This document shows, piece after piece, positions 25,501 to 46,648 of a stretch of DNA of 62,745 bases. Source of the stretch: a virus (Duplodnaviria > Caudoviricetes); IMG/VR virus record IMGVR_UViG_3300030090_000213, positions 1 to 62,745 of that record; one strand, written 5' to 3'. Position numbers and translations under genes: made by a program. The notes under the pieces are model-generated. The model did no database searches, had not been told where the DNA came from, and saw only the letters and a program-made list of their open reading frames with translations. Position 1 is the stretch's first letter. Every line of letters begins with the position of its first letter.

Positions 25501-28500
25501 CAAACCAACATATCAATATTCTCCAGAAATAAAAGATAGACAAGCTAGTTTAATTAATGATGTGCCATTATTTAGTAGAGGTAGAAGAGATAGTAAAAGA
25601 AAGTGGGATGAACAATATTATTATGTTGCTAAAAAAGAAGATGCTAATAGAATTTTAAAAGAAGGTTTTGCTGTTGATGATTCACAATTTTTTTATAATC
25701 CAGATACAGAAATAGAAACTCCAGGATTAGTAGTATTTACTAATCCAGTAGATGCTATTGCTTATCATAGAAGCGTAGATTGGAGAGAAGAACTATCTGA
25801 TTTAGTTTTAATAGCTGTTAAAAAAGGTACTGACAGAGATATTGGTGCTTTAAATTGGCAACCTAATCCAAATTCTCTTGGATTACAAGGTCAACTACGA
25901 GGTCTTAGTGGAGAAAAAACTAAAGGATTACTTAAAGATGAAACAAATACATCTTTATATTTAGATGCAGATAATAATTTAGATTATTTTAAAAATGTTA
26001 ATAACATATTAGGTAGTGCTACATTAGAAGAACTTACTCAAACAAAAATTAATCCATACTTTGGTAGAGCAATAGATAGAACTGGTGAAGTTCCGCAAAG
26101 ATTTTATAGTCCTGAAATGACTGATATGGGAGACCCATTACCTTCAGAACAAGTTAAATCTGTTATGGAAGGTAAAGGATTACCTATGAAACCAATAGGT
26201 AATGAAACAAGAGGTTTAGCTTCATCAAAAGAAGAACTTGCAAATATTGTTACTAAATATATGAATGATATTGCTAATATATTAAATCCACCACCAAATA
26301 CACAAAAAAATATACAATTAAAACAAGCAATAGAAGAAGCCGAAGAAACAGTTAAACAAACACCTAGGGGTTCAATACCTTATTATAATTTAAATGCCTC
26401 AGACACAGCTTTAAAGATTGCTATAGACTTTAATAAAGACTTATCTGCTAAGGCACCTGATGATATACCTAATTTTTCAAGACCTACTCTTGATGGATTG
26501 CAAGATAATCTACAAGAGTTTATTAAAAGAACAGGTGGAGAAATATTACCTGACCAATCTTGGGGTGCAAGAGTAATAGAAATTGTCAAAGACCCTATTA
26601 CATCTATTAAAAATTTCTTTAAAGAGTTTAGACAAAGATATATTGACCAATACGATACTGCTACCAAAGTACTATTAGCTGGTAAAAATAAAGAATGGTA
26701 TTTAAAAATAGATGAAAGAACAGGTAAATTAAGAATAAATCCTAAAACTGGAAAACCTTGGACAGAAGAAGAAGCAATAGCAGCAGCAGAACAAGTAACT
26801 CTTGCTAATATGTTTGCAAATGCAGGTGCAGAACAATCAGTAAGAATGTCTGATAAATCAAGAGGTGTATTTCAAGGTATGCTTACAAGAGGAATACCAA
26901 CTGATTTAATAGATGGAGTTGAATCTTTAGTAAAAACAATACCTTTACCTCTTGTTGATGCTAATGGTAATAAAACTGGTAAAACAGGTGGTCTTATACA
27001 AATACTTGCACCATTATTTTCTAATCTTAAATTAAATTTAGAAGCTGTTTTTAAAAGTTATGCTATGTTAAAAAGAGCAAAAAGTCTTGATGAAAGTGGT
27101 AGAGAAATAGATACACCAGTTAAACCTAAAGACTATGTTCTTATACAGCAAATAGAACAACAACATCCTGAAGTGGTAGAAGTTTATAATAATTATCAAA
27201 ATTGGAATAATGCTTTAATTAAACTTGCAGAAAGAAAAGGTATTTTAAGTGCAGAACAATCTGCATTATGGAGAGAACATTCTTCTTATTATCCTTTCTA
27301 TAGGCAAATGGTTGATGATAGTGGCATTAAAGGACCTAAAATTGCAGGTGGTTCACTACCAGGAAATCCATTAGATATACAAATAAAAGGTTCAGAAGAA
27401 ATTATTGACGCAGACCCAATAGAAGCTATATCAAGAAACTCATTATCTATTCTTACAGCAGCATTAAAAAATGATGCAATGAATAAAATAGTTACAAACT
27501 TAGAAACAATGGGATTAGCTCAAAAAATATCTGCAAAAAACGCAGGTACAACTGATAGCTTATTCTTCTTTGAAAATGGTAACAAGCAACACTATCAGGT
27601 AGATGACCCTAGACTGGTCTATAGTTTACAAAATGTTGGAGGAGTAGCTCCAGGTGCTATAGGAAAATTTTTAGCAGTACCAGCAGGGCTACTTAGAGAT
27701 ACAGTTACAAGAGACCCAGGCTTTGTTGTTATAAATATTTTAAGAGATACCTTATCTTCTGCTGTAACAAGTGGTGCACCATATACGCCTATCATTGATT
27801 CAGTTAAAAATATGTTTGGTAGCATGGAAGAATTAGAACAGTTTGGTGTTCTTGGTGGCTATGACTATTCTGTTGATGAGGGTAGTGTAAAGCAATTTAT
27901 TACTAGAACTATGCGACAACAGGGACTTACACCAAATAATGGTATGTCTCCTACAAGTGCTTTCTTTAAGCTATGGGATGGTCTTGGAGCACTTACTACT
28001 AAATCAGATGGTGCAACTCGTAAAGCAGTCTATGATGGTGTTTATAAACAGTTAAAAGAGCAAGTTTATAGAAATCCTAAAACTGGTAAATACGAAAATA
28101 TGCCTGAAGCAGTTGCACAATCAGAAGCGGCTTATCAAGCACAAGAAATAATTAACTTTGGAAGGCGTGGTTCTGATTCATTATTTAGAATTATTACTGC
28201 TGCAATACCATTCTTAAATGCAAGAATACAAGGTCTTGATGTATTACATAGAGGATTAACTGGACAATATTCTGCTGTAGAAAAACAACAAGTTGGAGAA
28301 TCACTAAAAGATGTGCAATCAAGAATATTTAGAAGAACATTCTTTAATGCAGGATTACTTGTAAGTCTAACAGCACTTTACTACATGATGGTAAGTGATA
28401 CAGATGAATACAAAAATCTTAAACGAGAAGTAAGAGATGATAACTGGGTCATGCCTATAGGCAATGGTAATGCAGTTAAGATACCTATTCCATTTGAAGT

Positions 28501-29329
28501 AGGTATGTTATTTAAAGCTATACCAGAAAGAGTATTTGATATGACTATGGGCGATGATGCTTTTACAAGAAAGTCTGTTGATGAAGCTATGACATCTATT
28601 GGCAGACAGGCTCAAACTTCTTTCAACATACCATTCTTTCAACCTGGTGGTGGAATACAATTATTAAAACCAATATCAGAAGTAATAAATAACAGAAATA
28701 CTTTTACTAATACAGAGATTGTTCCCTACTATCAACAAAAGAAAGAACCTGGACTACAATCAAGACCAACTACCAATGAGTTTGCAAGAGTATTAGGTGA
28801 AGCTCTTAATTTATCTCCTGCAAAGATAGAGCATGTTATGAGAGGTTATACAGGAACACTTGGTGGATATGTATTAAGTGTTATAGATACTATCACTAGA
28901 GGAGCTACAGGAAGTCCTCTAATACCTTCCAACTATCAACTAAGTAAAATGCCAGTCTTTAATAGACTATTACTTGATTTAGATAAGTCGGGTGGTTATC
29001 AGCAACAGTTTTATGAGTTAAGAAATGAGGTTGACAGGGCAGTAGCAACTATCAACTCTCTACAAAAACAAAGAAGATTTGATGAACTATCAGCTTACAG
29101 AAGCAATATGCAAGGTGTGTTGAATGTCAAAGGTCAAGTGAGAGCGATAGAAAGATACTTAGATAACTGGAGAAAGCGTAGAGATAGAATCTATCAAGAT
29201 GAAAACCTATCTATAACAGTCAAGTCAGATATGATAAGAGATTTAGAACTAGAAAGAGATATGCGACTAGCTATGGTTCCTGAATTGAGGAAGAAAGCTA
29301 ACATTCCTATTTTCAGTCTTAACCTCTAA
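19589..29329 (+). CDS. Giant polyvalent internal virion protein (3246 aa): two zincin-like HExxH motifs, ParB-like motif, ADP-ribosyltransferase-like segments, C-terminal LPD38-like domain
   Basis: HEMIH and HEGIH; SHEGRHRV; LFRAL...FASTT...EAEV; C-terminal IPFLNARIQG, KIPIPFEVG, SPAKIEH...GYTG motifs. Confidence 0.75.
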   Translation: MAEYDIGKGKKIKIPDNLDPETRLQLAEVVKDKYGIDINQTSALGQVGEFIKAIPRGAAGLALDVPTGIVGLFDIGNDSNLYKGLEGLQDRLREDSALAADPRYADKYSTKLGEGIGSFGPFLGAGMVGRALAKAPGAAKGILSPTFTAPTALAIPTGIAAQGDRLQMAREMGEDVSGLTETTAELFGGLIGITEVLPVASILGKVSSKTDLNIKERLVSALQSGAFEGGQEVAASILQDLTAKGLYSEDLPIADSMFEEFTIGGIIGGAADLVVTSMAGKSSARRKQLEEDNLRADENKAQLINAKKADLAMEQGTLEEIQDIPPTIVPQLIAPEELGVEPSVEVIMTPQEQFAVVDITNPEAPAQVDIKDTEIEAIKVRDKITKDFNNKKLKSKLDNDTYNLGLINSSTAYEIGQSLEDSRASDVTIQQLINSVPKDSKQEVILRGLVNSFVAQNPGKTSRSYPRLSMTKAKELLTPKQFNEFASAYAQGVFKASEKNGEPSIVADKDKPNTSAKYIKEIAESKNIDLDFQSPAVQYAAEKYTGTPEFKKMKKGQKELFLAKLHSLPKFNSRTTFPDFRPRDYSAQDMADFVAEMKSNNMTFNKASLKQMDRNEQFLDDLIYSNRAEKIEGTNNYKIRDNFEFDIARRAEGFNETPEEFGARLTAEGKLPPETIAELVQQETTKQERLLPPAEVIPKTINYAETLEQGKTNKFAQEIRKTMDARGLKETGIVISDDIISTSTLRQIEGEIKYDPSQVRATETQGAVEGEYDRNTDTIFLSLNAVNPDGSATDVEIQERLNKVLDHEMIHALRAKDLITKAEYSYLTKMVKQTKFPKQNQTFYQEAINRTKREFENRNLTDAFKEEYIVEEAIAELFRQKDLLVNTPPKVEGIYNKIIEFFKSMGQAMRSSGYKSATEIFNDIESGRIGRRERGVVRTTRIGDKGLQSFNFATDFSQLDESAVRPTIIPGDEIKQTLKPTGIRPLTIPKPKPTPPTPPAGPTTPPATPSTTPTTIYNTKKLTDKEYIAERSKILKGLQDAKVLDKDIFDKDGNVTKTIKGNNDSIKMMKWLIDNSPSQDYKIIAQKVHKSLLALKKQGRTFPLKLEVGEKQPDMRGTGQAAIQPSDMNPMEPYNYKTFTMLVNDGSLKRINAFANTSEWRRGNGVHFEALLHEGIHQATLAQIYAAQHNLITRKGTKTFQESASGKKVKAAHKELAIQANRVKGYYQERMRFYKNLAAKITKRETAEIQKKAIEEYKSIYNNAPTIEKDLADIYIIKDSTGFIYARDDNSFNGVSVQKRMFNDYRIKYQLFSNEAQYNEDVSELLTFGLTNRDFQEMLEYIPLGKDATNSVWNKFVETIRKLLEIPAKLNTELSAFLKNASTLLDLKTEGLIAPTPVGETAAPIDKEIPTFSRAADQAYFNRERRNQIISNLEAGIKNKQAQLNQERGLMTDATAKRLEREIINQRNEIAELKAGDLPFFSRAATETQPPYMDFNRQQIRDFSSNKVGFYNGVEIPLTHVTRMNVDDFLKLSTISQNQIDEIIEEGPSVFGFSQQDEPGSFKPINNRRMADAVFDPEIADTALTASLPSLQIKNDGQVISHEGRHRVALIKQGGGRTVPVFIHFPEGNVEQNIPNPSGQTLQEQGVTFLKNQYPGIFKDEYGDFQTNEFSRFAVPINKLREIAPLHRDSAQTKDKLDYAVQVATAPDILESTKDTVASASEYDIRMARFLASQDIPTFSRTNLIPKDTEVPFDWASNNRFETGAIIDQLKMSREEGGNRDNPAPLKMAIVEAFKGRKNRPLLRASKKFLEKFTNKKGNLVLFRALNIPEGEKIKNYGQLPQDLFASTTLDSRKALEIGRMLFNRAKEERSETWNIEILRYEVPMSKVKGYVPMLLKAMESDYITDFRSDMAGSGIMYQEELDAAIEEADAKGDFYKYQGEQTIEELFADAMYKYEEYIAEAEVVADLRGIKPTYQYSPEIKDRQASLINDVPLFSRGRRDSKRKWDEQYYYVAKKEDANRILKEGFAVDDSQFFYNPDTEIETPGLVVFTNPVDAIAYHRSVDWREELSDLVLIAVKKGTDRDIGALNWQPNPNSLGLQGQLRGLSGEKTKGLLKDETNTSLYLDADNNLDYFKNVNNILGSATLEELTQTKINPYFGRAIDRTGEVPQRFYSPEMTDMGDPLPSEQVKSVMEGKGLPMKPIGNETRGLASSKEELANIVTKYMNDIANILNPPPNTQKNIQLKQAIEEAEETVKQTPRGSIPYYNLNASDTALKIAIDFNKDLSAKAPDDIPNFSRPTLDGLQDNLQEFIKRTGGEILPDQSWGARVIEIVKDPITSIKNFFKEFRQRYIDQYDTATKVLLAGKNKEWYLKIDERTGKLRINPKTGKPWTEEEAIAAAEQVTLANMFANAGAEQSVRMSDKSRGVFQGMLTRGIPTDLIDGVESLVKTIPLPLVDANGNKTGKTGGLIQILAPLFSNLKLNLEAVFKSYAMLKRAKSLDESGREIDTPVKPKDYVLIQQIEQQHPEVVEVYNNYQNWNNALIKLAERKGILSAEQSALWREHSSYYPFYRQMVDDSGIKGPKIAGGSLPGNPLDIQIKGSEEIIDADPIEAISRNSLSILTAALKNDAMNKIVTNLETMGLAQKISAKNAGTTDSLFFFENGNKQHYQVDDPRLVYSLQNVGGVAPGAIGKFLAVPAGLLRDTVTRDPGFVVINILRDTLSSAVTSGAPYTPIIDSVKNMFGSMEELEQFGVLGGYDYSVDEGSVKQFITRTMRQQGLTPNNGMSPTSAFFKLWDGLGALTTKSDGATRKAVYDGVYKQLKEQVYRNPKTGKYENMPEAVAQSEAAYQAQEIINFGRRGSDSLFRIITAAIPFLNARIQGLDVLHRGLTGQYSAVEKQQVGESLKDVQSRIFRRTFFNAGLLVSLTALYYMMVSDTDEYKNLKREVRDDNWVMPIGNGNAVKIPIPFEVGMLFKAIPERVFDMTMGDDAFTRKSVDEAMTSIGRQAQTSFNIPFFQPGGGIQLLKPISEVINNRNTFTNTEIVPYYQQKKEPGLQSRPTTNEFARVLGEALNLSPAKIEHVMRGYTGTLGGYVLSVIDTITRGATGSPLIPSNYQLSKMPVFNRLLLDLDKSGGYQQQFYELRNEVDRAVATINSLQKQRRFDELSAYRSNMQGVLNVKGQVRAIERYLDNWRKRRDRIYQDENLSITVKSDMIRDLELERDMRLAMVPELRKKANIPIFSLNL

Positions 29330-37426: not shown

Positions 37427-37919
37427 AACATTACAAGTTAATGACATTGGAAGTCCCTATCTACATTTCAGAAACCAAGTTGCAATAACCAAAATAGGTA
37501 AAAGCAAAGTTGGTAGGGCAATCGTGTTTGACCAACACATCATAGATAAATCTTTCCTAGAACAAAAACTAACAGCAGAACAGCACAATGTCTGTAATAA
37601 ATACCTTGAATTGATAGCAAAAAGTGGAGCTTTGGGAAAATCCTTCGGGCTGGGAAAAGAAATATTTACCAGTCATAGTTTTAATCAAGCTCCGCCAAGA
37701 GCTGTAATGCTTTCAAGAATACAGAAAAAACTTGTGAATGACTGTGGATATGAGAGAGAAAAGGTTTTTTGGAAGATTATGATAGATAATCCTAAAGAAA
37801 TATGCGAAACAAAGGAGTTAGTAATGCAAGAATGTTCTAATGCACTACTAACTTTTTGGTATATTAGTCAGAAAAATCCTGTTTCTTTGTTTCAACAATC
37901 CCTTGTAAGCCAAGTTTAG
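37371..37919 (+). CDS. Hypothetical protein
   Basis: 182-aa ORF overlapping the helicase end; true start uncertain. Confidence 0.55.
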   Translation: MGDMQKLKKLKITLTGSSETLQVNDIGSPYLHFRNQVAITKIGKSKVGRAIVFDQHIIDKSFLEQKLTAEQHNVCNKYLELIAKSGALGKSFGLGKEIFTSHSFNQAPPRAVMLSRIQKKLVNDCGYEREKVFWKIMIDNPKEICETKELVMQECSNALLTFWYISQKNPVSLFQQSLVSQV

Positions 37920-38127
37920 CTTCATAATTATCACTTGTAATCGCTCCACTAAAGATAGCTTTGCCCTCTTGTTCAGCAGTATCTTCTTCAATAGATATGT
38001 TCTGCTTATCAGCTTCACTATGTATCATATGAATAATTTGCTTGTTAAGTGAGCGACTTTCTTTCTTAGCCAAAGAATGTGCCAATTCGTAGGTTTCTTC
38101 CGAACATCTAATGAATAGACTTTTCAT
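37864..38127 (-). CDS. Arc-like ribbon-helix-helix transcriptional regulator
   Basis: MKSLFIRCSEETYELAHSLAKKESRSLNKQIIHMI matches the Arc/Mnt pattern (RSLN.QI); AAGGA RBS. Confidence 0.75.
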   Translation of the reverse strand: MKSLFIRCSEETYELAHSLAKKESRSLNKQIIHMIHSEADKQNISIEEDTAEQEGKAIFSGAITSDNYEAKLGLQGIVETKKQDFSD

Positions 38128-38422
38128 AGTTATCATCCTTAAAAATAATTTGCGGACTATCTTGCACTTCTGCAATAGCAACACTTTCTCTACCAACTTG
38201 ATAATACCTATCTTCTTCTAATTGCTTTATGGCACTTTCAATTAACCATTCGTTAGACATAATTAAAGGGTCATCTAAAAGAGATATAGCAAAGGCAAGA
38301 GCATCTAGTTCAGTTTCAAATATCCATACAAAATGTTTCCATTTAGCACTAGATTTAGTTGAATAAGCATTACTTGGCTCAGGTATATCTAAATGATATG
38401 TGTGTCTTATTACCGCATACAT
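38108..38422 (-). CDS. Hypothetical protein (possibly near-leaderless)
   Basis: ATG at 38422, about 8 nt below a TATAAT box. Confidence 0.55.
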   Translation of the reverse strand: MYAVIRHTYHLDIPEPSNAYSTKSSAKWKHFVWIFETELDALAFAISLLDDPLIMSNEWLIESAIKQLEEDRYYQVGRESVAIAEVQDSPQIIFKDDNYEKSIH

Positions 38423-38430
38423 AAGCAATT

Positions 38431-38459
38431 ATTATACTGCAAAATGCTATCAAAGTGAA
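38431..38459 (-). promoter_or_regulatory. Sigma70-like promoter for the hypothetical + Arc-like genes
   Basis: TTCACT-17 nt-TATAAT on the minus strand; spacer contains the TTTGATAGCA motif. Confidence 0.5.
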
Positions 38460-38716
38460 ATACATATTGTTCCACATGGAACATTTATCCTACTGCTGTG
38501 TTTCCGACACCCGTGGTATTTCCTGACAAAAATAAAATATTTACCAGTCTATTGTTTTACAACGCCTCATCACGCCTACTGCTGTATTATTAAACACTAC
38601 AGGTTTCTGTCATCTCTGGACTCAGGCTAAAAAAATATTATTTACCAGTCAGGGATTTTTTGATAGCAGGACTTGGTGGTATGTCAACTATCTTTATAGA
38701 CTATCAACCGACTACC

Positions 38717-38747
38717 AAAAAAAAAGGGACAATCTTGCGACTATCCC
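38717..38747 (-). terminator. Intrinsic terminator of the putative sRNA
   Basis: GGGAUAGUC-GCAA-GAUUGUCCC followed by U9. Confidence 0.8.
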
Positions 38748-38833
38748 TTTAAACTTATAAACATAAGCTTGGAGGTTAATATATGAAATTGTATTGGAAA
38801 TAAAATTAAAAAATCACGCAATCAAATATTAGT
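38717..38833 (-). ncRNA. Putative ~115-nt antisense sRNA complementary to the shared RBS of the early genes
   Basis: Bounded by a sigma70 promoter and an intrinsic terminator; contains UUUCAUAUAUUAACCUCCAAG; no ORF on this strand; 5' end estimated. Confidence 0.6.
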
Positions 38834-38839
38834 TTCAAT

Positions 38840-38868
38840 AATATAATGTATTTGATAGCAAATTGCAA
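38840..38868 (-). promoter_or_regulatory. Sigma70-like promoter of the putative sRNA
   Basis: TTGCAA-17 nt-TATATT on the minus strand. Confidence 0.6.
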
Positions 38869-38871
38869 GAG

Positions 38872-38914
38872 TTATTAACAACTTTTTAACACTTTTTCCA
38901 CAGACTTATCCACG
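38872..38914 (+). promoter_or_regulatory. DnaA-box-like array
   Basis: TTATTAACA, TTTTTAACA, TTTTCCACA (fits TTWTNCACA), TTATCCACG at 11-12-bp spacing. Confidence 0.4.
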
Positions 38915-39069
38915 GCTTAAAAACCAGTAAATATATTATCTTCAGTCCACTTCAGAAATATCAATGTCAACACGACCCCACCCCAAACAACACCAGTAAA
39001 AACAATATACCAGTAAATATTTTTACCATCAATTTTTTTGATGGTAAACACATCCACTTTTTTTAGACC

Positions 39070-39114
39070 AAAAAAAAAGGCGGGACACTACCTTTTACAG
39101 TAGCATCCCGCCTT
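39070..39114 (-). terminator. Intrinsic terminator closing the early operon
   Basis: GGCGGGAUGCUACU-loop-GGUAGUGUCCCGCC followed by U9, directly after the last ORF. Confidence 0.85.
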
Positions 39115-39121
39115 AATTTAT

Positions 39122-39424
39122 TTATATATCTTGCACTTCAACTTCTTCAATTTCATCTTTAGCTGTAAATCCAACAACCTCTACAATGTCATCATTAGCT
39201 GTAAATCCAAAATGTTTTGGGTTAGGGATGTTTAAGTTTTCCCTTTCCTTATATAAAACATCTTGCACTTTATGATTAATTGAAACCAAAGTATTAAAAT
39301 ATTTAACTAGAGCCAAATCAATATCTGATTTTTCTTCTAGTTCCCTATTAATCTTTGTATAGATTTCGTTGCAAGTTCCTATGTTTACTTTCAAAGTAAA
39401 TTCTAACAATTCCCTATTAGTCAT
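39122..39424 (-). CDS. Hypothetical early protein
   Basis: 100 aa, ATGA-coupled to the upstream gene; short duplicated GFTA.D.I.EV motif. Confidence 0.6.
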   Translation of the reverse strand: MTNRELLEFTLKVNIGTCNEIYTKINRELEEKSDIDLALVKYFNTLVSINHKVQDVLYKERENLNIPNPKHFGFTANDDIVEVVGFTAKDEIEEVEVQDI

Positions 39425-39648
39425 TCTAAACCCCCCATACCTTTTAATGTTCCAAAACTATGGGTAAGAACAAATTCATCATCATCTAAATTAGTATCAA
39501 GTTCTGCAGATAACAACTCGTTAAATTCTTTTGGATTTTCTTCTTTAAGTGTTTCTGCCATTTCAATACATCCCTTAAAAGATGATATATTGTCTGTTGC
39601 TTGAAATAATATTTCTGCAACTGTTTCTATGTCGTTATTAATACTCAT
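39421..39648 (-). CDS. Hypothetical acidic early protein
   Basis: 75 aa; CTTGGAGG RBS. Confidence 0.65.
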   Translation of the reverse strand: MSINNDIETVAEILFQATDNISSFKGCIEMAETLKEENPKEFNELLSAELDTNLDDDEFVLTHSFGTLKGMGGLE

Positions 39649-39682
39649 AATAATTACCCCTCCAAGGGCAGTTAAGTTAAAT

Positions 39683-39741
39683 AAACTGTTTCATGCCTTT
39701 AGGCAATCATCAGTAGAAAATACACATTTTCTATACAGTTT
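39683..39741 (-). ncRNA. Hammerhead ribozyme, type III (HH1)
   Basis: AAACUG-UA^-UAGAAAAU-GUGU-AUUUUCUA-CUGAUGA-U-UGCC-UAAA-GGCA-U-GAAA-CAGUUU; predicted GUA cut between 39734/39733. Confidence 0.85.
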
Positions 39742-39874
39742 TGGCAAAATTGTCGCTAGGAGAACTCGCCTGTTGCAAAGTTAAGAGTAGGTTAAGGGCA
39801 TAAGATACCCTAAAAAACCCTACTCTTAAATCGCATTAGAAAATTTCTATCTGTGTTTAGTCAGATAAAAATAT

Positions 39875-40570
39875 TTACCAGTCAATGGTTTTATCAGCAT
39901 AAATGATTTCATCTTCATTCCTATTACTTAAATACGCAATAGCTTCTGATTTATTAATAGTCTTTTCAAAAACTTCATAATCAAAATTAAATCTATTAGC
40001 AAACCATTCAGCTATTTCTTTGCTTAAAGTCCAAGACAATCCTTTATCATTAAGACCACCTCTATAGATTTTTATTTTATTAGGAAGTTTATCAAAGTAT
40101 TTTTTATCATCATCGCACATAATTAAATGTTTATCTTTGATAAAATAATCGTTTAACAAAAAATACCAATAATCTAAATTTTCATAGACATTTTCAGTAT
40201 CACACCAAATATATCTAATTAAATCCCAATACTCATCAGCTTTTGGCTTCCACCATTGCTGTATGGCATCGTAAACAAAAGGCACTCTATAAGGTCTTGT
40301 AATAAAATTTACAATTTCCATATCGTTATTTGATTTAGCTTCTTGAAATGCTTTGCTTTTAGCTTCATAACTTTTATTAGCTATATCTATTTGCAAAGGA
40401 TGTTCGCTGTAATATCCAACATAAAACTTATGATGTATCATTTTCATTCCACTTGACAATGTAATAACACATTTAGCTAGTTCGCTGTTAAGTTTTATAT
40501 CTTCATCAACATCATTAATATTTTTAATGCTATAAATTATATCTTCATTGAGTTTTTTATTTATATCCAT
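39875..40570 (-). CDS. Hypothetical early protein, C-terminal ADP-ribosyltransferase-like motif
   Basis: True start ATG 40570 after CTTGGAGG; IYRG...GLSWT...A.WFA...RNEDEII resembles the R-S-E ART pattern (inference). Confidence 0.6.
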   Translation of the reverse strand: MDINKKLNEDIIYSIKNINDVDEDIKLNSELAKCVITLSSGMKMIHHKFYVGYYSEHPLQIDIANKSYEAKSKAFQEAKSNNDMEIVNFITRPYRVPFVYDAIQQWWKPKADEYWDLIRYIWCDTENVYENLDYWYFLLNDYFIKDKHLIMCDDDKKYFDKLPNKIKIYRGGLNDKGLSWTLSKEIAEWFANRFNFDYEVFEKTINKSEAIAYLSNRNEDEIIYADKTIDW

Positions 40571-40604
40571 AATAAAAGACCCTCCAAGGTCAGTTAAGTT
40601 AAAA

Positions 40605-40657
40605 TCCTGTTTCATGGTTTCCCAATCATCAGTTGCAATACACATTGCAAAACAGAA
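40605..40657 (-). ncRNA. Hammerhead ribozyme, type III (HH2)
   Basis: UUCUG-UU^-UUGCAAU-GUGU-AUUGCAA-CUGAUGA-U-UGG-GAAA-CCA-U-GAAA-CAGGA; predicted GUU cut 40651/40650. Confidence 0.82.
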
Positions 40658-40726
40658 AATTTGACTAGCAAAGAGAAAAATATTTACTGGTAAATACTTT
40701 TCTCAACGCTAATCTGCTAGAAATTT

Positions 40727-41548
40727 CTAGGCTTTTTTCTTCCTTGGTCTAGGATAGATTTCAGAAGTTCCAAATAACTTCTTCTTTTCTTCTGCAGTTC
40801 CAAAGTGAACTATAGCTTTAAACAATCTTCTAACCATGGACTGTATTGCTAAAGTTTTTTGTTCGCCAGTTCTAGCACACACTTTAGGCTGTAATCTAAC
40901 AACTTGTCTTATGGTTAGTTGTTTTTCTTCATCAGACCAAAGACCCAAGGCTTGATTATGCAAAGAAGCATACAATCCATTCATAAATCCACCACGAAGA
41001 TTATCTTCTTGTAGAATTTTGTACCCTCTTATTGCCATACCAAGAACATCTAAATCTGAATATCTATAAGACCCAAATGATGTCCAATCAATAATTTCAT
41101 CAGACACACTTGATTTACTTACAGCTTCTTCAAGTTTAGACTTCATTGCAGTATTAATATCAGAATTTTCATCTAAACATTTATTAATGATGTTAGTTGT
41201 TTTATCAACTGTTGATTTTTTCTTTGCAGAAAATACATCAACGACATTTGCATTTACAACTGGCACCATTCTTGATGTAAGTTCATCAATAACATTTGTT
41301 TCAATACCCAATTCTCTAGCCATTTCTCGTAAAGCATTACCTCTACTTTCATGGTCATCTAGTAAACTGGCAACTACAATCTTTTCTAATTGCTTTTCAG
41401 ATTTAATCATCTTTGAAAACACATAAAAAAGTTGTGTTGAAATATCAATACTATATTTATTCTTCACATTTTCTAACCATGTTTTAGTTTCATCTGAAAC
41501 ATGAGTAGAAACTGGAGAACACTCGTTTTTATAATTATCATTTTTCAT
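40727..41548 (-). CDS. Hypothetical early protein
   Basis: ATG at 41548 after CTTGGAGG; possible N-terminal ribbon-helix-helix. Confidence 0.65.
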   Translation of the reverse strand: MKNDNYKNECSPVSTHVSDETKTWLENVKNKYSIDISTQLFYVFSKMIKSEKQLEKIVVASLLDDHESRGNALREMARELGIETNVIDELTSRMVPVVNANVVDVFSAKKKSTVDKTTNIINKCLDENSDINTAMKSKLEEAVSKSSVSDEIIDWTSFGSYRYSDLDVLGMAIRGYKILQEDNLRGGFMNGLYASLHNQALGLWSDEEKQLTIRQVVRLQPKVCARTGEQKTLAIQSMVRRLFKAIVHFGTAEEKKKLFGTSEIYPRPRKKKA

Positions 41549-41580
41549 AATTATATGTCCCTCCAAGGACAGTTTTTAAG

Positions 41581-41637
41581 TTTCTGATTTCATGCTTTTG
41601 CAATCATCAGCCAAGATACACATCTTGATATCAGAAA
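41581..41637 (-). ncRNA. Hammerhead ribozyme, type III (HH3)
   Basis: UUUCUGA-UA^-UCAAGAU-GUGU-AUCUUGG-CUGAUGA-U-UGC-AAAA-GCA-U-GAAA-UCAGAAA; predicted AUA cut 41629/41628. Confidence 0.85.
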
Positions 41638-41701
41638 TTTGATGCGGGAAGAAAAAATATTTACTGGTAAATACTTTTTCCTCCCCACCATGTTGTCGTG
41701 A

Positions 41702-43030
41702 TTAAAGACTAGAGAAATCTATAGCAACTTTTTCTCCAAAAGGAAGTTCATTGCTCCAATTATTCTCGCCACCACTTAATGCCCATATTACTGGAACATT
41801 TGGCTCAACTTCTGAACTACATTGTCCATACGCATCTGTAAAGTAGATAAATGCTATCACATCATCTGTATCATCAGTATAGTCATTGTATAAGTTGAAA
41901 GGCGGGTCAAAATCAGTTCCGCCACCGCCACGACAGACAAGTTCCAACTCTTCACAATCCAAGTCGTATTCATCCCACCACTCGCCTTTTGAGTTTTTGT
42001 GGACAGTAGTATCACAATAACAAACTCTAATTTTATTGATACCGCACTCTTCCGCTAGGGAATTGATTTCAGTTGCAAAAACATTAAGTTCTTCTTCTGA
42101 AACACTACCGCTTGTATCAATAGCAATAACAAGTTCTCCGCCTTTTGGCTCTTTATCTCTACTAGGTAAATTAATCCCTCGCCAAGAATGTCTTTTATTC
42201 AATCTTGTCCAAGTAGGATTATTAGAGTAAACACTTTGCAATAAATCTCGCATCACATCTACCCAATCAACATAACTTTCGTTTAGCTGTTCCATAGCTT
42301 TTCCAAAACCACCAGTAGGATTTTCTCCAATACTATCTAGCTTGTCAGCCATTGTGATAGTTCTTTGAAGTTCCTCTTGTAGTTCAGCCATTTCAGTAGG
42401 CGATAATTCTTGTCCATTTTCATTAGTTGGCATCCAAACTTCGCCACTAGGTAATTCAACATCAGCAAGTTTCTCTTCAAGAGATTTACTTTGTCCATTA
42501 CCAGTAGCATCAGTATCAGCATCTTCGTTAGCATCCGCATCAGTATCAGCATCAGCATCGCTATCAGAATTGCCATTATCAGAATTAGATTGCAAATTCT
42601 CTAAAGCATCGTTTAAAGCATCTTCATCATTAGATAAAGTTCTATAAACTTGCTCTGCACTTTGTCCCTTATACTTCCTATCAATTAATCCGCCCTCTGG
42701 TAAAGGCATATCTAAATCGTATGCTATCCAAGAGTTAATTACATAGTCAGTTGCTATGTTCCAAAGTTCGTGATTTCGCTTCCCTTTTCTTAAAGGATGT
42801 TCCCAAATAACATGACTTGCTTCGTGAACTAATACTGCTTGGATTTCTTCATCTGATATTGATTTAACAAATTCATCATTCCAATAAATATTAATTCCAT
42901 TTGTAGCCATAGTTTTACATCGCTCATTATCCTCAATCAAAGTAAGTTTTAATAACATAGTAGCCATACCAACATTACCTTTCATAAGTTTCGCTCTAGC
43001 TTTAATCATTCGCTCTTCACTATTTAACAT
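41702..43030 (-). CDS. Metallopeptidase + VWA domain protein (DUF2201-like)
   Basis: MATNG, VLVHEASH, WNIATDYVIN, acidic linker, MIDAS IDTSGS, GGGGTDF, YFTD; ATG 43030. Confidence 0.85.
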   Translation of the reverse strand: MLNSEERMIKARAKLMKGNVGMATMLLKLTLIEDNERCKTMATNGINIYWNDEFVKSISDEEIQAVLVHEASHVIWEHPLRKGKRNHELWNIATDYVINSWIAYDLDMPLPEGGLIDRKYKGQSAEQVYRTLSNDEDALNDALENLQSNSDNGNSDSDADADTDADANEDADTDATGNGQSKSLEEKLADVELPSGEVWMPTNENGQELSPTEMAELQEELQRTITMADKLDSIGENPTGGFGKAMEQLNESYVDWVDVMRDLLQSVYSNNPTWTRLNKRHSWRGINLPSRDKEPKGGELVIAIDTSGSVSEEELNVFATEINSLAEECGINKIRVCYCDTTVHKNSKGEWWDEYDLDCEELELVCRGGGGTDFDPPFNLYNDYTDDTDDVIAFIYFTDAYGQCSSEVEPNVPVIWALSGGENNWSNELPFGEKVAIDFSSL

Positions 43031-43062
43031 AATTAATTCCTCCAAGAATTTTATTTATGAGT

Positions 43063-43115
43063 TTCTGTTTCATGGTTTCCCAATCATCAGTTGCGATACA
43101 CATCGCAAGACAGAA
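43063..43115 (-). ncRNA. Hammerhead ribozyme, type III (HH4)
   Basis: UUCUG-UC^-UUGCGAU-GUGU-AUCGCAA-CUGAUGA-U-UGG-GAAA-CCA-U-GAAA-CAGAA; canonical GUC cut 43109/43108. Confidence 0.87.
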
Positions 43116-43166
43116 GCAAAGAAAAAATATTTACTGGTAAATAGTTTTTCCCTGCAACTCATTGGC

Positions 43167-44141
43167 TTACTTTTTATACATATCGTTTAAAAATCCGCCT
43201 TTCATTTCATCTGCTAAATCACTAACACTATCTTTTAAATCATCTGCAAGTTGTTTTCGCTTCTTGTCAGTATAATCATCATCATCACGAAGTGAATTAA
43301 CATCATTTATTTTTGCAAAGACAGTAACTAAATTTTGATGTGCTTCCGCTATCTTTTTGTCATTCCCTAGAATGTCAGAATTGATACTTGGAAGAGTATC
43401 TAAAAATTGTCTAAACTTATCAAAAGATGAATTTTTGAAAAACCCTCCACCTTTTGTTTTTGGGTCATAAGAACTTAACTTATCAGCTAAATGTTCTACA
43501 CTTTCCAAAAGAGTTTCAACAGTAGTTCTAGTTATTGCTTCAACATTTTTAGTTGCTCTTTTTAATGCATCGCTTTCAATCTTCTTGCGAAGTTTTTGTG
43601 ATACATTTAAACGAATATCCTTACTATTAAATTGTGGAACAGTACCAAGTTCAAAATCAAATCTGAATTTAGTCGCTATTTCATCTTTAGTTGGATAATC
43701 AGACAACTTAAAAGCATCGCCAAGTTTGTATTTATTCGCTTCAATCAAATTATCATAATTATCAAGAAACTCTTTAACTTCTTTATCAAAGTCAACTTTA
43801 GCATCGTTCACTTTATCCATAAGTGTATCAAGTTCTTGATTGGGACATAATCTCCAACCGCTTAAAACTTTACCCTCAAAGTCGCTAGTATTATCATCCC
43901 AAGGGACAGTCATAGGATAAAAATAGTTATACCTAAACTGATTGATAATTCTACGAAAATACTTATTCGTTTCCTTACCAAAGATATACTTCGCAACATG
44001 AAGTGAACTTTCATATGCTTTTTGGTCTATTGCTAGACCCTCTTTTAAATCCTTATCTGATTTAATACCGCTTGGATGCTTCGTTGTAAGTCGCACTAAA
44101 GTTGCATTTTCAGATAAAGTATTTGCATTTTCTTTTTTCAT
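43167..44141 (-). CDS. Helical phage protein (DUF3150-like), partner of the AAA/VWA pair
   Basis: T.PW.D...GWRL.P...F...Y......LG..F...DYP pattern; ATG 44141 after CTTGGAGG. Confidence 0.6.
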   Translation of the reverse strand: MKKENANTLSENATLVRLTTKHPSGIKSDKDLKEGLAIDQKAYESSLHVAKYIFGKETNKYFRRIINQFRYNYFYPMTVPWDDNTSDFEGKVLSGWRLCPNQELDTLMDKVNDAKVDFDKEVKEFLDNYDNLIEANKYKLGDAFKLSDYPTKDEIATKFRFDFELGTVPQFNSKDIRLNVSQKLRKKIESDALKRATKNVEAITRTTVETLLESVEHLADKLSSYDPKTKGGGFFKNSSFDKFRQFLDTLPSINSDILGNDKKIAEAHQNLVTVFAKINDVNSLRDDDDYTDKKRKQLADDLKDSVSDLADEMKGGFLNDMYKK

Positions 44142-44173
44142 AATTAATTCCTCCAAGAATTATTTATTAATAA

Positions 44174-44229
44174 ATTCTGATTTCATGCTTTTGCAATCAT
44201 CAGTTGGGACTACATCCCAATATCAGAAT
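44174..44229 (-). ncRNA. Hammerhead ribozyme, type III (HH5)
   Basis: AUUCUGA-UA^-UUGGGA-UGUAG-UCCCAA-CUGAUGA-U-UGC-AAAA-GCA-U-GAAA-UCAGAAU; predicted AUA cut 44221/44220. Confidence 0.85.
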
Positions 44230-44286
44230 GAGCGGAAAAGGAATATTTACCAGTCAATAATAAATATTCCTAGTCGCTTCGTGAGT

Positions 44287-45351
44287 TTAGATTTCTAAAT
44301 CTTGGTTATCAATTTTGAATTTAGAATATACATCGCACTCTTTGAGTTCGTTTCTTAATCCAGTAATTTTTCTAACAAAGAATATAGAAAATTCTACAGT
44401 TGAAAGTTGCTTCAAATAATTTAAAGCATTTTCAAAGTAGTCATAAACATCGTTGTCATTCGCTCCATTAATTGCAGTTGTTAATGCAATCGTTGTCGCA
44501 TAGCAAAGACCCGCATTATCTACAACTTCAACATTTTTGCCCTTACATATATCAGATATGTTTGGCACATCATTTTGAAGTGAAATAAAGTTCATAAGTT
44601 CAATCGCACTTTCTTGACCAACATCGCCCTCAAACAATTTTTGCATCAATCGTTTTGGCGGGTCAGTTTTCAAAGTATCGCTTAACCTTGTCCAACTTCT
44701 TGGACTTGGCTGTGGGTCATTACATTTAGGGTCAAAGTCCCATAGTAGCTGTGGCATAAATCTAATAAGTCCTTGAACATTTAAGTCAATGTCGTTCTTA
44801 TCAGCCCACTCTAACCAATCATCTACATCGTGAGTAAACTGGATAGCAGTAGTTCTATCTTGGCAATGCCTTAATATCTTATTTGCTCCGCTTCTATCAG
44901 TATGTCTATTACCCGCTAAAACAATTTTCCACCCACTAGGAAAAACATAATCGCCTATTCTTCGCTCTTCGTTTTTTCCTTTTGGGTCTAGTAATTGTCC
45001 TATCGTTGCTTGAACTGATGAATGTGCTTGTGCAAATTCATCCAAGAAAAATAGACCCTCGCCACCTCTAGGCAAGTTGCCTAAAAATGCTTTCTTTTGA
45101 GTTCCCTCTTCAATGTAAGGCAACCCTCCCAAGTCAATACTTTCAACTAATCCCAATCTAAAAGAGATAAAACCAAATTCATCTTCTTTTGGATTAGTGT
45201 TATCAGTCAAAGTACGACCATTTGCTATTTCCTCCGCAATCTCTTTAACTATTGCGGATTTACCAACTCCAGTACCACCAATTAAAAATGGAATATTACT
45301 CCCTTTTAAAATATGTAGACATGAAGTTTTTGCTTCACTAGGTTTAAACAT
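44287..45351 (-). CDS. MoxR-like AAA+ ATPase
   Basis: Walker A GGTGVGKS, Walker B LFFLDE, DLGGLP, VLAGNR, PSPRSW; ATG 45351. Confidence 0.88.
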   Translation of the reverse strand: MFKPSEAKTSCLHILKGSNIPFLIGGTGVGKSAIVKEIAEEIANGRTLTDNTNPKEDEFGFISFRLGLVESIDLGGLPYIEEGTQKKAFLGNLPRGGEGLFFLDEFAQAHSSVQATIGQLLDPKGKNEERRIGDYVFPSGWKIVLAGNRHTDRSGANKILRHCQDRTTAIQFTHDVDDWLEWADKNDIDLNVQGLIRFMPQLLWDFDPKCNDPQPSPRSWTRLSDTLKTDPPKRLMQKLFEGDVGQESAIELMNFISLQNDVPNISDICKGKNVEVVDNAGLCYATTIALTTAINGANDNDVYDYFENALNYLKQLSTVEFSIFFVRKITGLRNELKECDVYSKFKIDNQDLEI

Positions 45352-45403
45352 AATTAATTCCTCCAAGAATTTTAAGTTTAATATTTGTTAGCAATTTGCT
45401 AAC

Positions 45404-45464
45404 ACCAATAACATCCCAAATAGTTGAGATGTTTTCATAGCATTTCAGCTAATCATCAGTTGGT
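45404..45464 (-). ncRNA. Hammerhead ribozyme, type I (HH6)
   Basis: ACCAA-CUGAUGA-U-UAGC-UGAAAU-GCUA-U-GAAA-ACAUCUCAA-CUAU-UUGGGAUGU-UA^-UUGGU; predicted UUA cut 45409/45408. Confidence 0.8.
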
Positions 45465-45599
45465 TTGAATTACCTTATCTATTTCTTTGATAAGTTCTTT
45501 AGCACTAGAAGTTTCTTTTAAAGTTTCCCACTCTTCACTATCAACTATGTGTTCAAGTGTATCTTTAATATCTTCTAATAGTTCTTTATCAATTTTCAT
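45456..45599 (-). CDS. Small acidic early protein (47 aa, not in the ORF track), first gene of the early operon
   Basis: CTTGGAGG RBS; MKIDKELLEDIKDTLEHIVDSEEWETLKETSSAKELIKEIDKVIQTN; stop UGA lies in the HH6 core. Confidence 0.7.
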   Translation of the reverse strand: MKIDKELLEDIKDTLEHIVDSEEWETLKETSSAKELIKEIDKVIQTN

Positions 45600-45617
45600 A
45601 ATTTAACCCTCCAAGGT

Positions 45618-45695
45618 CAGTTTCTTGTACCCAACCATTTACTAACACCATGTTAGTAAACTGGACACTCATTCAGCACGTTAATTCGTGGACTG
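45618..45695 (-). ncRNA. Divergent hammerhead-like element (HH7) with core insertions
   Basis: CAG-UC^-CACG-AAUUAA-CGUG-CUGAAUGA-long stem II-AA-GAAA-CUG, in the same position relative to the RBS as the others. Confidence 0.5.
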
Positions 45696-46052
45696 TTGGA
45701 GCAGTCCCAAAAGTTATATATCTTTAAGATTGATTATTAAAATTAATTAGTCTTTATAAGTTCCTTTATCTATAAAGCAAAAAGATACTTTCCTCTTGGT
45801 TTTGCGGGTCTTGTTAAAATCATCACGACTTGAACTAACCTATTGTTACGCACTAGCTACTTTAAGAGCGAATTCCTTATTGGACTGGACTGACCTTTTC
45901 TTCCCAATAAATCTTGTTGGACTTTTTTAACACCCTCCAACACTAGCACTAGGGCTGTTGATTTAACAACTCTTCAACTTTACCTTTTTCAAGACCCTTG
46001 CGGGTAGTTGGCTACAGTTTAAAGACATAATCGTTTTGGTCTGTGTAGAAAC

Positions 46053-46081
46053 AGTATAAGGCAAGTGAACATCATCTGCAA
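46053..46081 (-). promoter_or_regulatory. Sigma70-like promoter of the early operon
   Basis: TTGCAG-17 nt-TATACT on the minus strand. Confidence 0.6.
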
Positions 46082-46168
46082 CATCATATTAAATATTTAC
46101 CAGTCCACTATTTTTGCTATCGTTTTGTGAGCATTATATTTTCTTCATATCTGCGATAAGATTTATGC

Positions 46169-46648
46169 ATGAGCAAAGATGAAAAACCAAATCTGAAAGT
46201 AGTCAAAAAAGAAATTGATTTGACCATAAAGCAAAGGCAGTTCGTGGATGAAATTATTAAGGGCAAGTTGGGTAGTTATAAAGAAGCATATGCAAAAGTT
46301 TATGATGTTACTCTAACGAAGCAAGGCAAGATACCTAAATGGGTAGAAGTGGAAGCATCCAAGTTAGTAGCTAACCCTAAAATAACCATAAGCATACAAA
46401 GGGCTATTGAACGCAAAGAGCAGTCAGCAGTAGCTAGTAGTATCAGAACAAGGAACTATGTCATAGACCAACTGTATCGTGAAAGCAAAGAAGCGGATAG
46501 CGATGCGACTAGAGTTAGAGCATTGGAACTGCTAGGCAAAAGTGTATCGCTGTTTAGTGATGTCGTTGAAACCAAAGAAGCAAGAACAAGCGATGAAGTT
46601 GAAGCGGATATTGAAGAGCGAATACAAGCATTACTTAATAAACAATAG
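46169..46648 (+). CDS. Terminase small subunit
   Basis: LTIKQRQFV...AY...ASKL..NPKI...RVRALELLGK; upstream of TerL. Confidence 0.8.
   Translation: MSKDEKPNLKVVKKEIDLTIKQRQFVDEIIKGKLGSYKEAYAKVYDVTLTKQGKIPKWVEVEASKLVANPKITISIQRAIERKEQSAVASSIRTRNYVIDQLYRESKEADSDATRVRALELLGKSVSLFSDVVETKEARTSDEVEADIEERIQALLNKQ

Follow-up and report, generated by a model that had tools for sequence, protein, structure and literature searches.

What is encoded in 0.7 kb of non-coding DNA at the minus-strand side of a marine phage genome, beside an operon whose genes are led by hammerhead-like ribozymes? The stretch belongs to IMG/VR record IMGVR_UViG_3300030090_000213 (Duplodnaviria; Caudoviricetes), a complete 62.7-kb phage record that was analysed over all of its 62,745 nucleotides (nt) and is called the window below. 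The terminase of this phage is 59-61% identical to those of HTVC027P-type SAR11 phages. An original prediction, made from the DNA letters and their open reading frames (ORFs), had placed at 38717-38868 the gene of a small RNA antisense to the shared ribosome-binding site (RBS) of all ribozyme-led genes. Our analysis suggests that a minus-strand small RNA is very likely made from this unit, and by comparative sequence criteria its gene is real and represents a new family. The best single explanation, which we put forward as a plausible but tentative one, is that the unit is the gene of a trans-acting small RNA that could serve as a common off-switch for the ribozyme-led genes. As for the original interpretation as a whole, the comparative data bear out a minus-strand small RNA without an ORF and with an exposed anti-RBS seed, and the extended pairing that it also included is at chance level in this phage.

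The small RNA unit and its conservation

Read from right to left on the minus strand, the seven-gene operon is followed by its terminator, a DnaA-box-like array, a promoter, ~117 nt and a terminator hairpin, with the small RNA unit lying ~210 nt past the operon terminator at 39114-39077 (Table 1). The parts named in the original prediction are in place. The promoter TTGCAA-17-TATATT is present on the minus strand at 38868-38840, the GCAA-tetraloop terminator has a stem of 12 pairs and a T-run (9 A on the plus strand, 38717-38725), the 21-mer that had been quoted is the reverse complement of plus-strand positions 38768-38788 (UUUCAUAUAUUAACCUCCAAG), and the proposed AAGCUUAU/AUAAGUUU hairpin is part of the minimum-free-energy fold. 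The transcript had been described as free of ORFs, and no minus-strand ORF of at least 30 aa was found within the unit. Its 3' end is predicted to fall in the U-run 38725-38717. No Rfam match was obtained at the gathering threshold in the whole window, and none at 38717-38868 when 37900-46300 was searched at E <= 5. The promoter has 9 of 12 consensus matches and its spacer holds a conserved TnTGC(A/T)ATC. Taken alone this match is at chance level, as 11 promoter-like sites occur in 2.5 kb compared to 12.2 ± 2.9 in shuffles; the reality of the promoter rests on its conservation in relatives.

As relatives we used 48 loci found with the primase/helicase at 60-98% protein identity, and the unit was searched for by rules of which the -35 was a part and the -10 was not. 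Besides the window itself, 40 of the 48 loci carry the unit, in 31 distinct sequences altogether. Variant units occur in three further loci (L030, L042 and L040); among the remaining ones, two end before the region and three (L033, L035 and L047) have no convincing unit. Searched with a covariance model, the window and 37 loci gave a single strong match each (E <= 3.6e-4); 25 of these sequences had served to train the model. The only strong match in the window was at 38718-38804 (79.1 bits), and the next one, with an E of 0.43, was antisense to the start region of the gene at 40570. A -10 with at least four of six matches, including A2 and T6, stands 16-18 nt from the -35 in all 31 distinct units. 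The body of the RNA drifts freely in length and sequence among the relatives. When 25 sequences were aligned (mean column identity 42%), no block other than ACCTCCA and the T-run proved invariant or near-invariant, and the terminator has compensatory changes at five of seven consensus pairs (25 relatives).

When folded individually, the RNAs have a common architecture of a 5' hairpin, a single-stranded ACCUCCA linker, usually a second hairpin and the terminator. An equivalent of hairpin 2, different in sequence, is present in most clades and absent from the L004-L009 clade. The mean unpaired probability of ACCUCCA is 0.80 compared to 0.41 for the whole RNA, and the heptamer exceeds 0.5 in 29 of the 31 units. 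In 29 of 31 units the minus strand gives the stabler of the two folds (mean -28.4 vs -21.6 kcal/mol for the plus strand), as expected if G.U pairs matter. RNAalifold on a MAFFT alignment recovered the terminator only, because the hairpins are not alignable between clades, and the folds of single sequences were used instead.

A promoter match at chance level is also what could be seen if the unit was not expressed, its promoter-, terminator- and Shine-Dalgarno (SD)-like sequences being conserved for reasons at the DNA level. This is highly improbable, given the compensatory changes in the terminator stem, the strand-specific asymmetry of the G.U pairs and a -10 that is kept in every distinct unit although the body drifts. 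Another possibility is that the plus strand carries the functional start, UGGAGGU and ATG beginning a mini-ORF (ribosome loading or a leader peptide) that is perhaps controlled in cis by the minus-strand RNA as its antisense. An ATG follows GGAGG at 7-13 nt in 17 of 25 distinct contexts compared to 3.4 ± 1.6 in shuffles, ATGAA recurs in several clades, and GGAGGU is a perfect canonical SD. However, the peptides range from 2 to 26 aa with neither sequence nor length conserved, a start codon (ATG, GTG or TTG) at 4-13 nt is missing from five of 31 units, and no conserved plus-strand promoter is apparent upstream. Both the conserved promoter and the conserved terminator serve the minus strand, and the G.U pairs of the hairpins become mismatches on the plus strand, whose fold is the weaker one in all but two of the units. 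We therefore give a plus-strand start little probability. For the plus-strand ATG itself two readings may be offered, a second contact of CAU with AUG and a remnant of a start cassette that was duplicated in inverted orientation; the covariance match antisense to the 40570 start agrees with either reading of the ATG, but is weak.

Even without a functional link to the operon, the unit would stand as a well-defined non-coding RNA family with 31 sequence variants and a covariance model that has no Rfam entry. Its members belong to uncultured marine phages, to which SAR11 phages are the nearest among those catalogued.

Seed pairing with the starts of ribozyme-led genes

The seven genes of the operon had been predicted to share an RBS followed by UUAUG, and they do. 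CTTGGAGG occurs in 11 copies in the window compared to 1.06 ± 0.92 in shuffles (none of 100 shuffles reaches 11), and seven of the copies stand 8-11 nt upstream of ATG in the seven operon genes, each start ending in ...TTATG. The perfect 8-nt complementarity that had been noted for every RBS was confirmed as well, and CCUCCAAG of the small RNA would form 8 bp with CUUGGAGG in all seven genes. The seed-only duplex amounts to -13.3 to -14.0 kcal/mol at the seven operon starts and is no better than -10.3 kcal/mol at the other 55 starts of the window. Apart from A/T-only runs, no other complementarity of at least 12 nt to the small RNA was found in the genome. RNAduplex runs with all 117 nt of the RNA produced long-range loops that were unrealistic, and analyses of the seed and of a 28-nt segment were used instead.

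It could be asked whether the RNA is rather a general anti-SD RNA, which would bind strong SDs broadly (host mRNAs, any GGAGGU) or act as a decoy for a factor recognising the tail of 16S rRNA. The conserved core is ACCUCC plus flanking A's, and ACCUCC equals the core of the 16S rRNA 3' end. Pairing of the 5' A with the U that ends GGAGGU is the canonical extension towards 16S, and most of the targets in the window are without that U. In three clades (L017, L018 and L046) other GGAGG starts match the RNA equally or better. Across all loci, however, a U precedes GGAGG in 128 of 135 distinct hammerhead-led contexts, other GGAGG starts having A (108), T (87), G (20) or C (13) in this position. The invariant 3' A with which the seed ends fits the U in U-GGAGG, the signature of hammerhead-led genes, while the 16S tail would prefer A-GGAGG, and a seed for this canonical site would need a U, as in 16S. 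In 24 of 27 phages the contiguous complementarity is longer at hammerhead-led starts (mean 8.6 nt) than at the remaining GGAGG starts (7.0 nt). In addition, most of the other starts in the window use AGGAG(A)-type sites, which give only 4-5 bp with the seed. A general anti-SD function is on these grounds unlikely.

That all seven genes are led by a ribozyme, as was originally claimed, is supported by sequence and fold for six of them. Six elements (five of type III and one of type I) have the CUGAUGA...GAAA core, a three-helix junction and an NUH cleavage site, by which they are classed as hammerhead-like. The first gene (ATG 45599) has only the deviant CUGAAUGAG. No match of the elements to the Rfam hammerhead models was found, even at E <= 5. 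The five type III elements have GUGU stem-I loops and U.U at 10.1/11.1, and the CUGAUGA core of the type I element (45453-45459) contains the stop codon of the operon's first gene (47 aa). SD hairpins are located on the minus strand at 39655-39670, 40578-40592, 41557-41571, 43036-43051, 44147-44162 and 45357-45372. In this RBS hairpin, C-G and U.G close a UGGA loop and the outer stem co-varies among genes and phages (AAUUCU/GGAAUU, GACCU/GGGUC, AUACU/GGUAU and others). With GGA in its loop, the hairpin presumably resembles binding sites of the CsrA/RsmA type.

The unit has the features of a trans-encoded, RBS-occluding small RNA, i.e. promoter and terminator, no conserved frame, an accessible seed and, as computed, distant start regions that are complementary to it. 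A classical SD-occluding small RNA is the best-supported mechanistic reading. The linker ACCUCCA would pair with UGGAGG in the loop and 3' arm of the RBS hairpins downstream of the hammerheads in the neighbouring operon. Such pairing would compete with the 30S subunit for the SD and lower translation, and it might also make the target mRNAs prone to decay. As the RNA gene replicates with the phage, and its DnaA-box-flanked promoter with it, the RNA could accumulate over time and jointly turn these genes down. In its sense strand, the RNA gene appears to resemble the start region of its targets (SD, 7-13 nt, ATG), which would fit an inverted duplication of one cassette. The most far-reaching version, in which a master antisense RNA (an inverted copy of the start cassette) shuts down all of the ribozyme-processed, 5'-OH-capped mRNAs of the operon and is coupled to phage DNA replication via gene dosage and the DnaA-box-flanked promoter, is in our opinion rather doubtful.

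Several observations weigh against an off-switch acting on these genes. The seed is short, its 8-bp duplex nets approximately -4.3 to -5.5 kcal/mol after the costs of opening, and the RBS hairpin keeps the target partly closed. The sharing of CUUGGAGG (its CUU part) is largely explained by the conserved RBS hairpin with its co-varying stems, and a small RNA is not required to account for it. Imperfect pairing had been expected to extend over the start codon, and this was not upheld in this phage: the duplex mean was -17.7 kcal/mol, and shuffling of the 22 nt 5' of the seed gave -17.0 ± 1.4 kcal/mol. Beyond the seed, a fraction of 0.25 of the shuffles paired as well in the window, and the 0.05 level was beaten in only nine of 27 relatives. 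The near-invariant 5' A of the seed needs a U after GGAGG, which is found at 60 of the 135 hammerhead-led sites, and the seven sites of the window carry G or A there. Covariation between the seed and the RBS flank, which had been suggested as a check, gave a mixed picture, own-phage matching being ahead in some clades such as the GACAT clade (9.2 with own vs 6.9 with other-phage sites) and not in the clade of the window (8.0 vs 8.23). The enriched plus-strand ATG fits a real plus-strand start site equally well, and a recognisable hammerhead is present at only six of the seven genes. Finally, the sequences of the relatives are not independent, and all counts overstate the number of events.

The setting of the unit in the genome

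The putative DnaA-box-like array upstream of the promoter was identified by what we take to be the DnaA-box consensus, and judged from its sequence it could be an origin or a DnaA-controlled promoter. The transcript might accordingly belong to a replication or regulatory hub, being a primer or an origin-activating RNA from the DnaA-box-flanked promoter, with the core as a protein or processing site, for example. The array is conserved and abuts the -35 with ~11-12 bp spacing, most relatives having an exact TTATCCACA. GAC(T/A)A(T/C)C repeats are found at 38699, 38710, 38728 and 38739, around and inside the terminator of the small RNA, and the whole region sits between the primase/helicase module and the ribozyme-punctuated operon. 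Yet no origin is marked here by GC skew, which runs with the direction of the genes, and DnaA-box matches are not enriched genome-wide in the window (28 vs 21.4 ± 5.0). An invariant, single-stranded heptamer and a strong terminator 117 nt from the start make up the layout of a base-pairing RNA, and a primer would leave the invariance of ACCUCCA unexplained. A role of this kind seems quite improbable to us, and a trans-acting, base-pairing RNA remains the preferred reading. GACTATC-like repeats occur at the same place in the relatives, just beyond or inside the small RNA terminator (38699-38745 in the window).

The operon runs on the minus strand from 45599 to 39122 and includes genes for an AAA/MoxR-like ATPase, a DUF3150 protein and a DUF2201 metallopeptidase/VWA protein; that it is an early operon is an assumption of the original prediction. 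As a DNA query the region had no match among catalogued phages. The relatives of the AAA ATPase in catalogued phages are all below 30% identity, and therefore no cultured phage carries this operon. Patterns for the seed with terminator and for the ribozyme with UGGAGG were each found in none of the four nearest catalogued phages (HTVC027P, HTVC023P, 023Pt_psg01 and DSL-LC04); the latter pattern finds five cassettes in the window, and no cultured relative among them carries the unit. A locus search with the ATPase gave mostly the contigs already in use plus one 50%-identical locus, L076, which has few cassettes and by screening no seed-like unit. In a collection-wide scan for ribozyme-UGGAGG, 80 loci among the matches listed were screened and seven passed a crude filter of fold plus ATG. 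Among these listed matches L111 and L120 alone were judged to be true cassettes, and they are fragments (50% and 8% complete) without the seed pattern.

Left of the small RNA, a second promoter (TTCACT-17-TATAAT, 38459->38431, minus strand) is conserved and drives two small, almost leaderless minus-strand genes, the second of which (89 aa) has a weak match to Arc/RHH repressors (E 3.7e-4). Beside this promoter lies the perfect palindrome TGTTCCACATGGAACA (38468-38483), and 37864-38483 may be an autoregulated repressor module. The motif TATTTAC(C/T)(A/G)GT has 18 copies over both strands, usually after an A-run, and is conserved in relatives (9681, 28092, 29683, 29720, 37663, 38538, 38639, 38933, 39019, 39872, 40681, 41658, 43128, 44244, 46094 and others). 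Copies that lie between genes of the operon take the form of the near-palindrome TATTTACCAGTAAATA with T-runs behind it, a candidate terminator, operator or phage promoter. Elsewhere in the genome, an ORF of 3246 aa (19589-29329) has as its sole Pfam match LPD38, a large polyvalent protein domain, near the C-terminus. Positions 1750-2119 and 62380-62745 are 93-99% identical over ~370 nt, the former near the end of an ORF that is open at its 5' side and the latter at the 3' end of the record. Full terminal redundancy of the record was considered for this and rejected in favour of a local repeat of ~370 nt common to two large ORFs.

Table 1. Positions in the window of the small RNA unit, its surroundings and the hammerhead-led starts of the operon
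Feature	Position	Strand	Remarks
Sigma-70-type promoter	38840..38868	-	-35 TTGCAA 38868-38863, 17-nt spacer, -10 TATATT 38845-38840
Predicted small RNA, ~117 nt	38717..38835	-	start placed at A 5-7 nt past -10 (38835-38833)
Invariant single-stranded core ACCUCCA (plus strand TGGAGGT)	38770..38776	-	extends to CCUCCAAG (38768-38775) in this phage
Hairpin 2, AAGCUUAU-GUUU-AUAAGUUU	38751..38770	-	minimum-free-energy fold; includes last three seed bases
Intrinsic terminator	38717..38750	-	12-bp stem with G.U pairs (38750->38723), GCAA loop, U9
Mini-ORF MKLYWK	38783..38803	+	7 nt after GGAGG
DnaA-box-like 9-mer array (TTATTAACA, TTTTTAACA, TTTTCCACA, TTATCCACG)	38870..38914	+	directly upstream of -35; putative
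Terminator of ribozyme-punctuated operon	39077..39114	-	16 pairs, 8 G-C, T-run; kept in relatives
CUUGGAGG in RBS hairpin, gene start 39648	39659..39666	-	
Hammerhead-like, type III	39683..39741	-	three-way junction fold, CUGAUGA...GAAA
CUUGGAGG in RBS hairpin, gene start 40570	40581..40588	-	
Hammerhead-like, type III	40605..40657	-	
CUUGGAGG in RBS hairpin, gene start 41548	41560..41567	-	
Hammerhead-like, type III	41581..41637	-	
CUUGGAGG in RBS hairpin, gene start 43030 (DUF2201 metallopeptidase/VWA-like)	43039..43046	-	
Hammerhead-like, type III	43063..43115	-	
CUUGGAGG in RBS hairpin, gene start 44141 (DUF3150)	44150..44157	-	
Hammerhead-like, type III	44174..44229	-	
CUUGGAGG in RBS hairpin, gene start 45351 (AAA/MoxR-like ATPase)	45360..45367	-	
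Hammerhead-like, permuted type I	45404..45464	-	stem III hairpin also flagged
CUUGGAGG upstream of 47-aa gene, start 45599	45608..45615	-	no canonical hammerhead ahead

Comparison with known systems

In the literature, supplements not covered, we found no description of this RNA, of a stereotyped RBS hairpin following each ribozyme or of a small RNA paired with ribozyme-led genes. The genome paper on HTVC023P-type phages (PMC9599517), supplements excluded, makes no mention of ribozyme, hammerhead, small RNA, noncoding, MoxR or DnaA. A type I toxin-antitoxin pair was considered and rejected, the plus-strand peptides being unconserved, down to 2 aa in length and absent in five of 31 units.

The OOP RNA of phage lambda and the sar RNA of P22 are cis-antisense to their targets, and the CI RNA of P4 acts on repeated target sequences and causes termination. 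The RNA described here is like these in being a short terminated transcript in a phage control region. It differs from the cis-antisense OOP and sar in that its proposed targets lie away from its own gene, and from the terminating P4 CI RNA in that occlusion of the RBS is proposed; no sequence or Rfam relationship of the small RNA to any of the three was found. The SD-occluding RNAs with C-rich seeds, for example RNAIII and Rsa in Staphylococcus and RoxS and FsrA in Bacillus, are chromosomal stress regulators. With these our RNA has in common an unpaired C-rich motif in or between hairpins, an intrinsic terminator and, as predicted here, pairing with GGAGG-type sites in multiple targets. In contrast to them it is borne by a phage, with a core that nearly copies the 16S anti-SD, and matches best the ribozyme-led genes of that same phage.

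The c4 RNA of phages P1 and P7 is processed from the transcript of its own target, upstream of that target, and has one target (icd/ant) in immunity. As a small phage RNA, c4 binds around the RBS by exposed complementary sequences and blocks translation (PMC12197685). The two are alike in being RNAs encoded by a phage with exposed complementarity directed to the RBS, which for the present RNA is a prediction. Unlike c4, the small RNA lies outside the operon of its presumed targets with a promoter and terminator to itself, and seven repeated start cassettes match its seed. Membership in the c4 type was rejected on account of its own promoter, the distance of ~210 nt beyond the operon terminator and the lack of sequence relationship to c4.

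On the side of the targets, the closest precedent is the finding that clustered hammerheads flank prophage genes, their purpose being given as unknown (Perreault et al. 2011, PMC3088659). As in their study, several hammerheads punctuate one phage transcript here, which suggests processing to single-gene mRNAs. The RBS hairpin shared after each ribozyme and the partner small RNA are not mentioned in the available part of PMC3088659. The pairing of the RBS hairpin and the small RNA would bear on the question of what hammerhead clusters do in phage operons. If the small RNA and the RBS hairpins interact, ribozyme-processed phage mRNAs would have a concrete and testable regulatory role, and if the far-reaching version with a master antisense RNA, judged rather doubtful above, is true, ribozyme, RBS hairpin and small RNA would form a three-part RNA circuit that is conserved across a clade of abundant marine phages.

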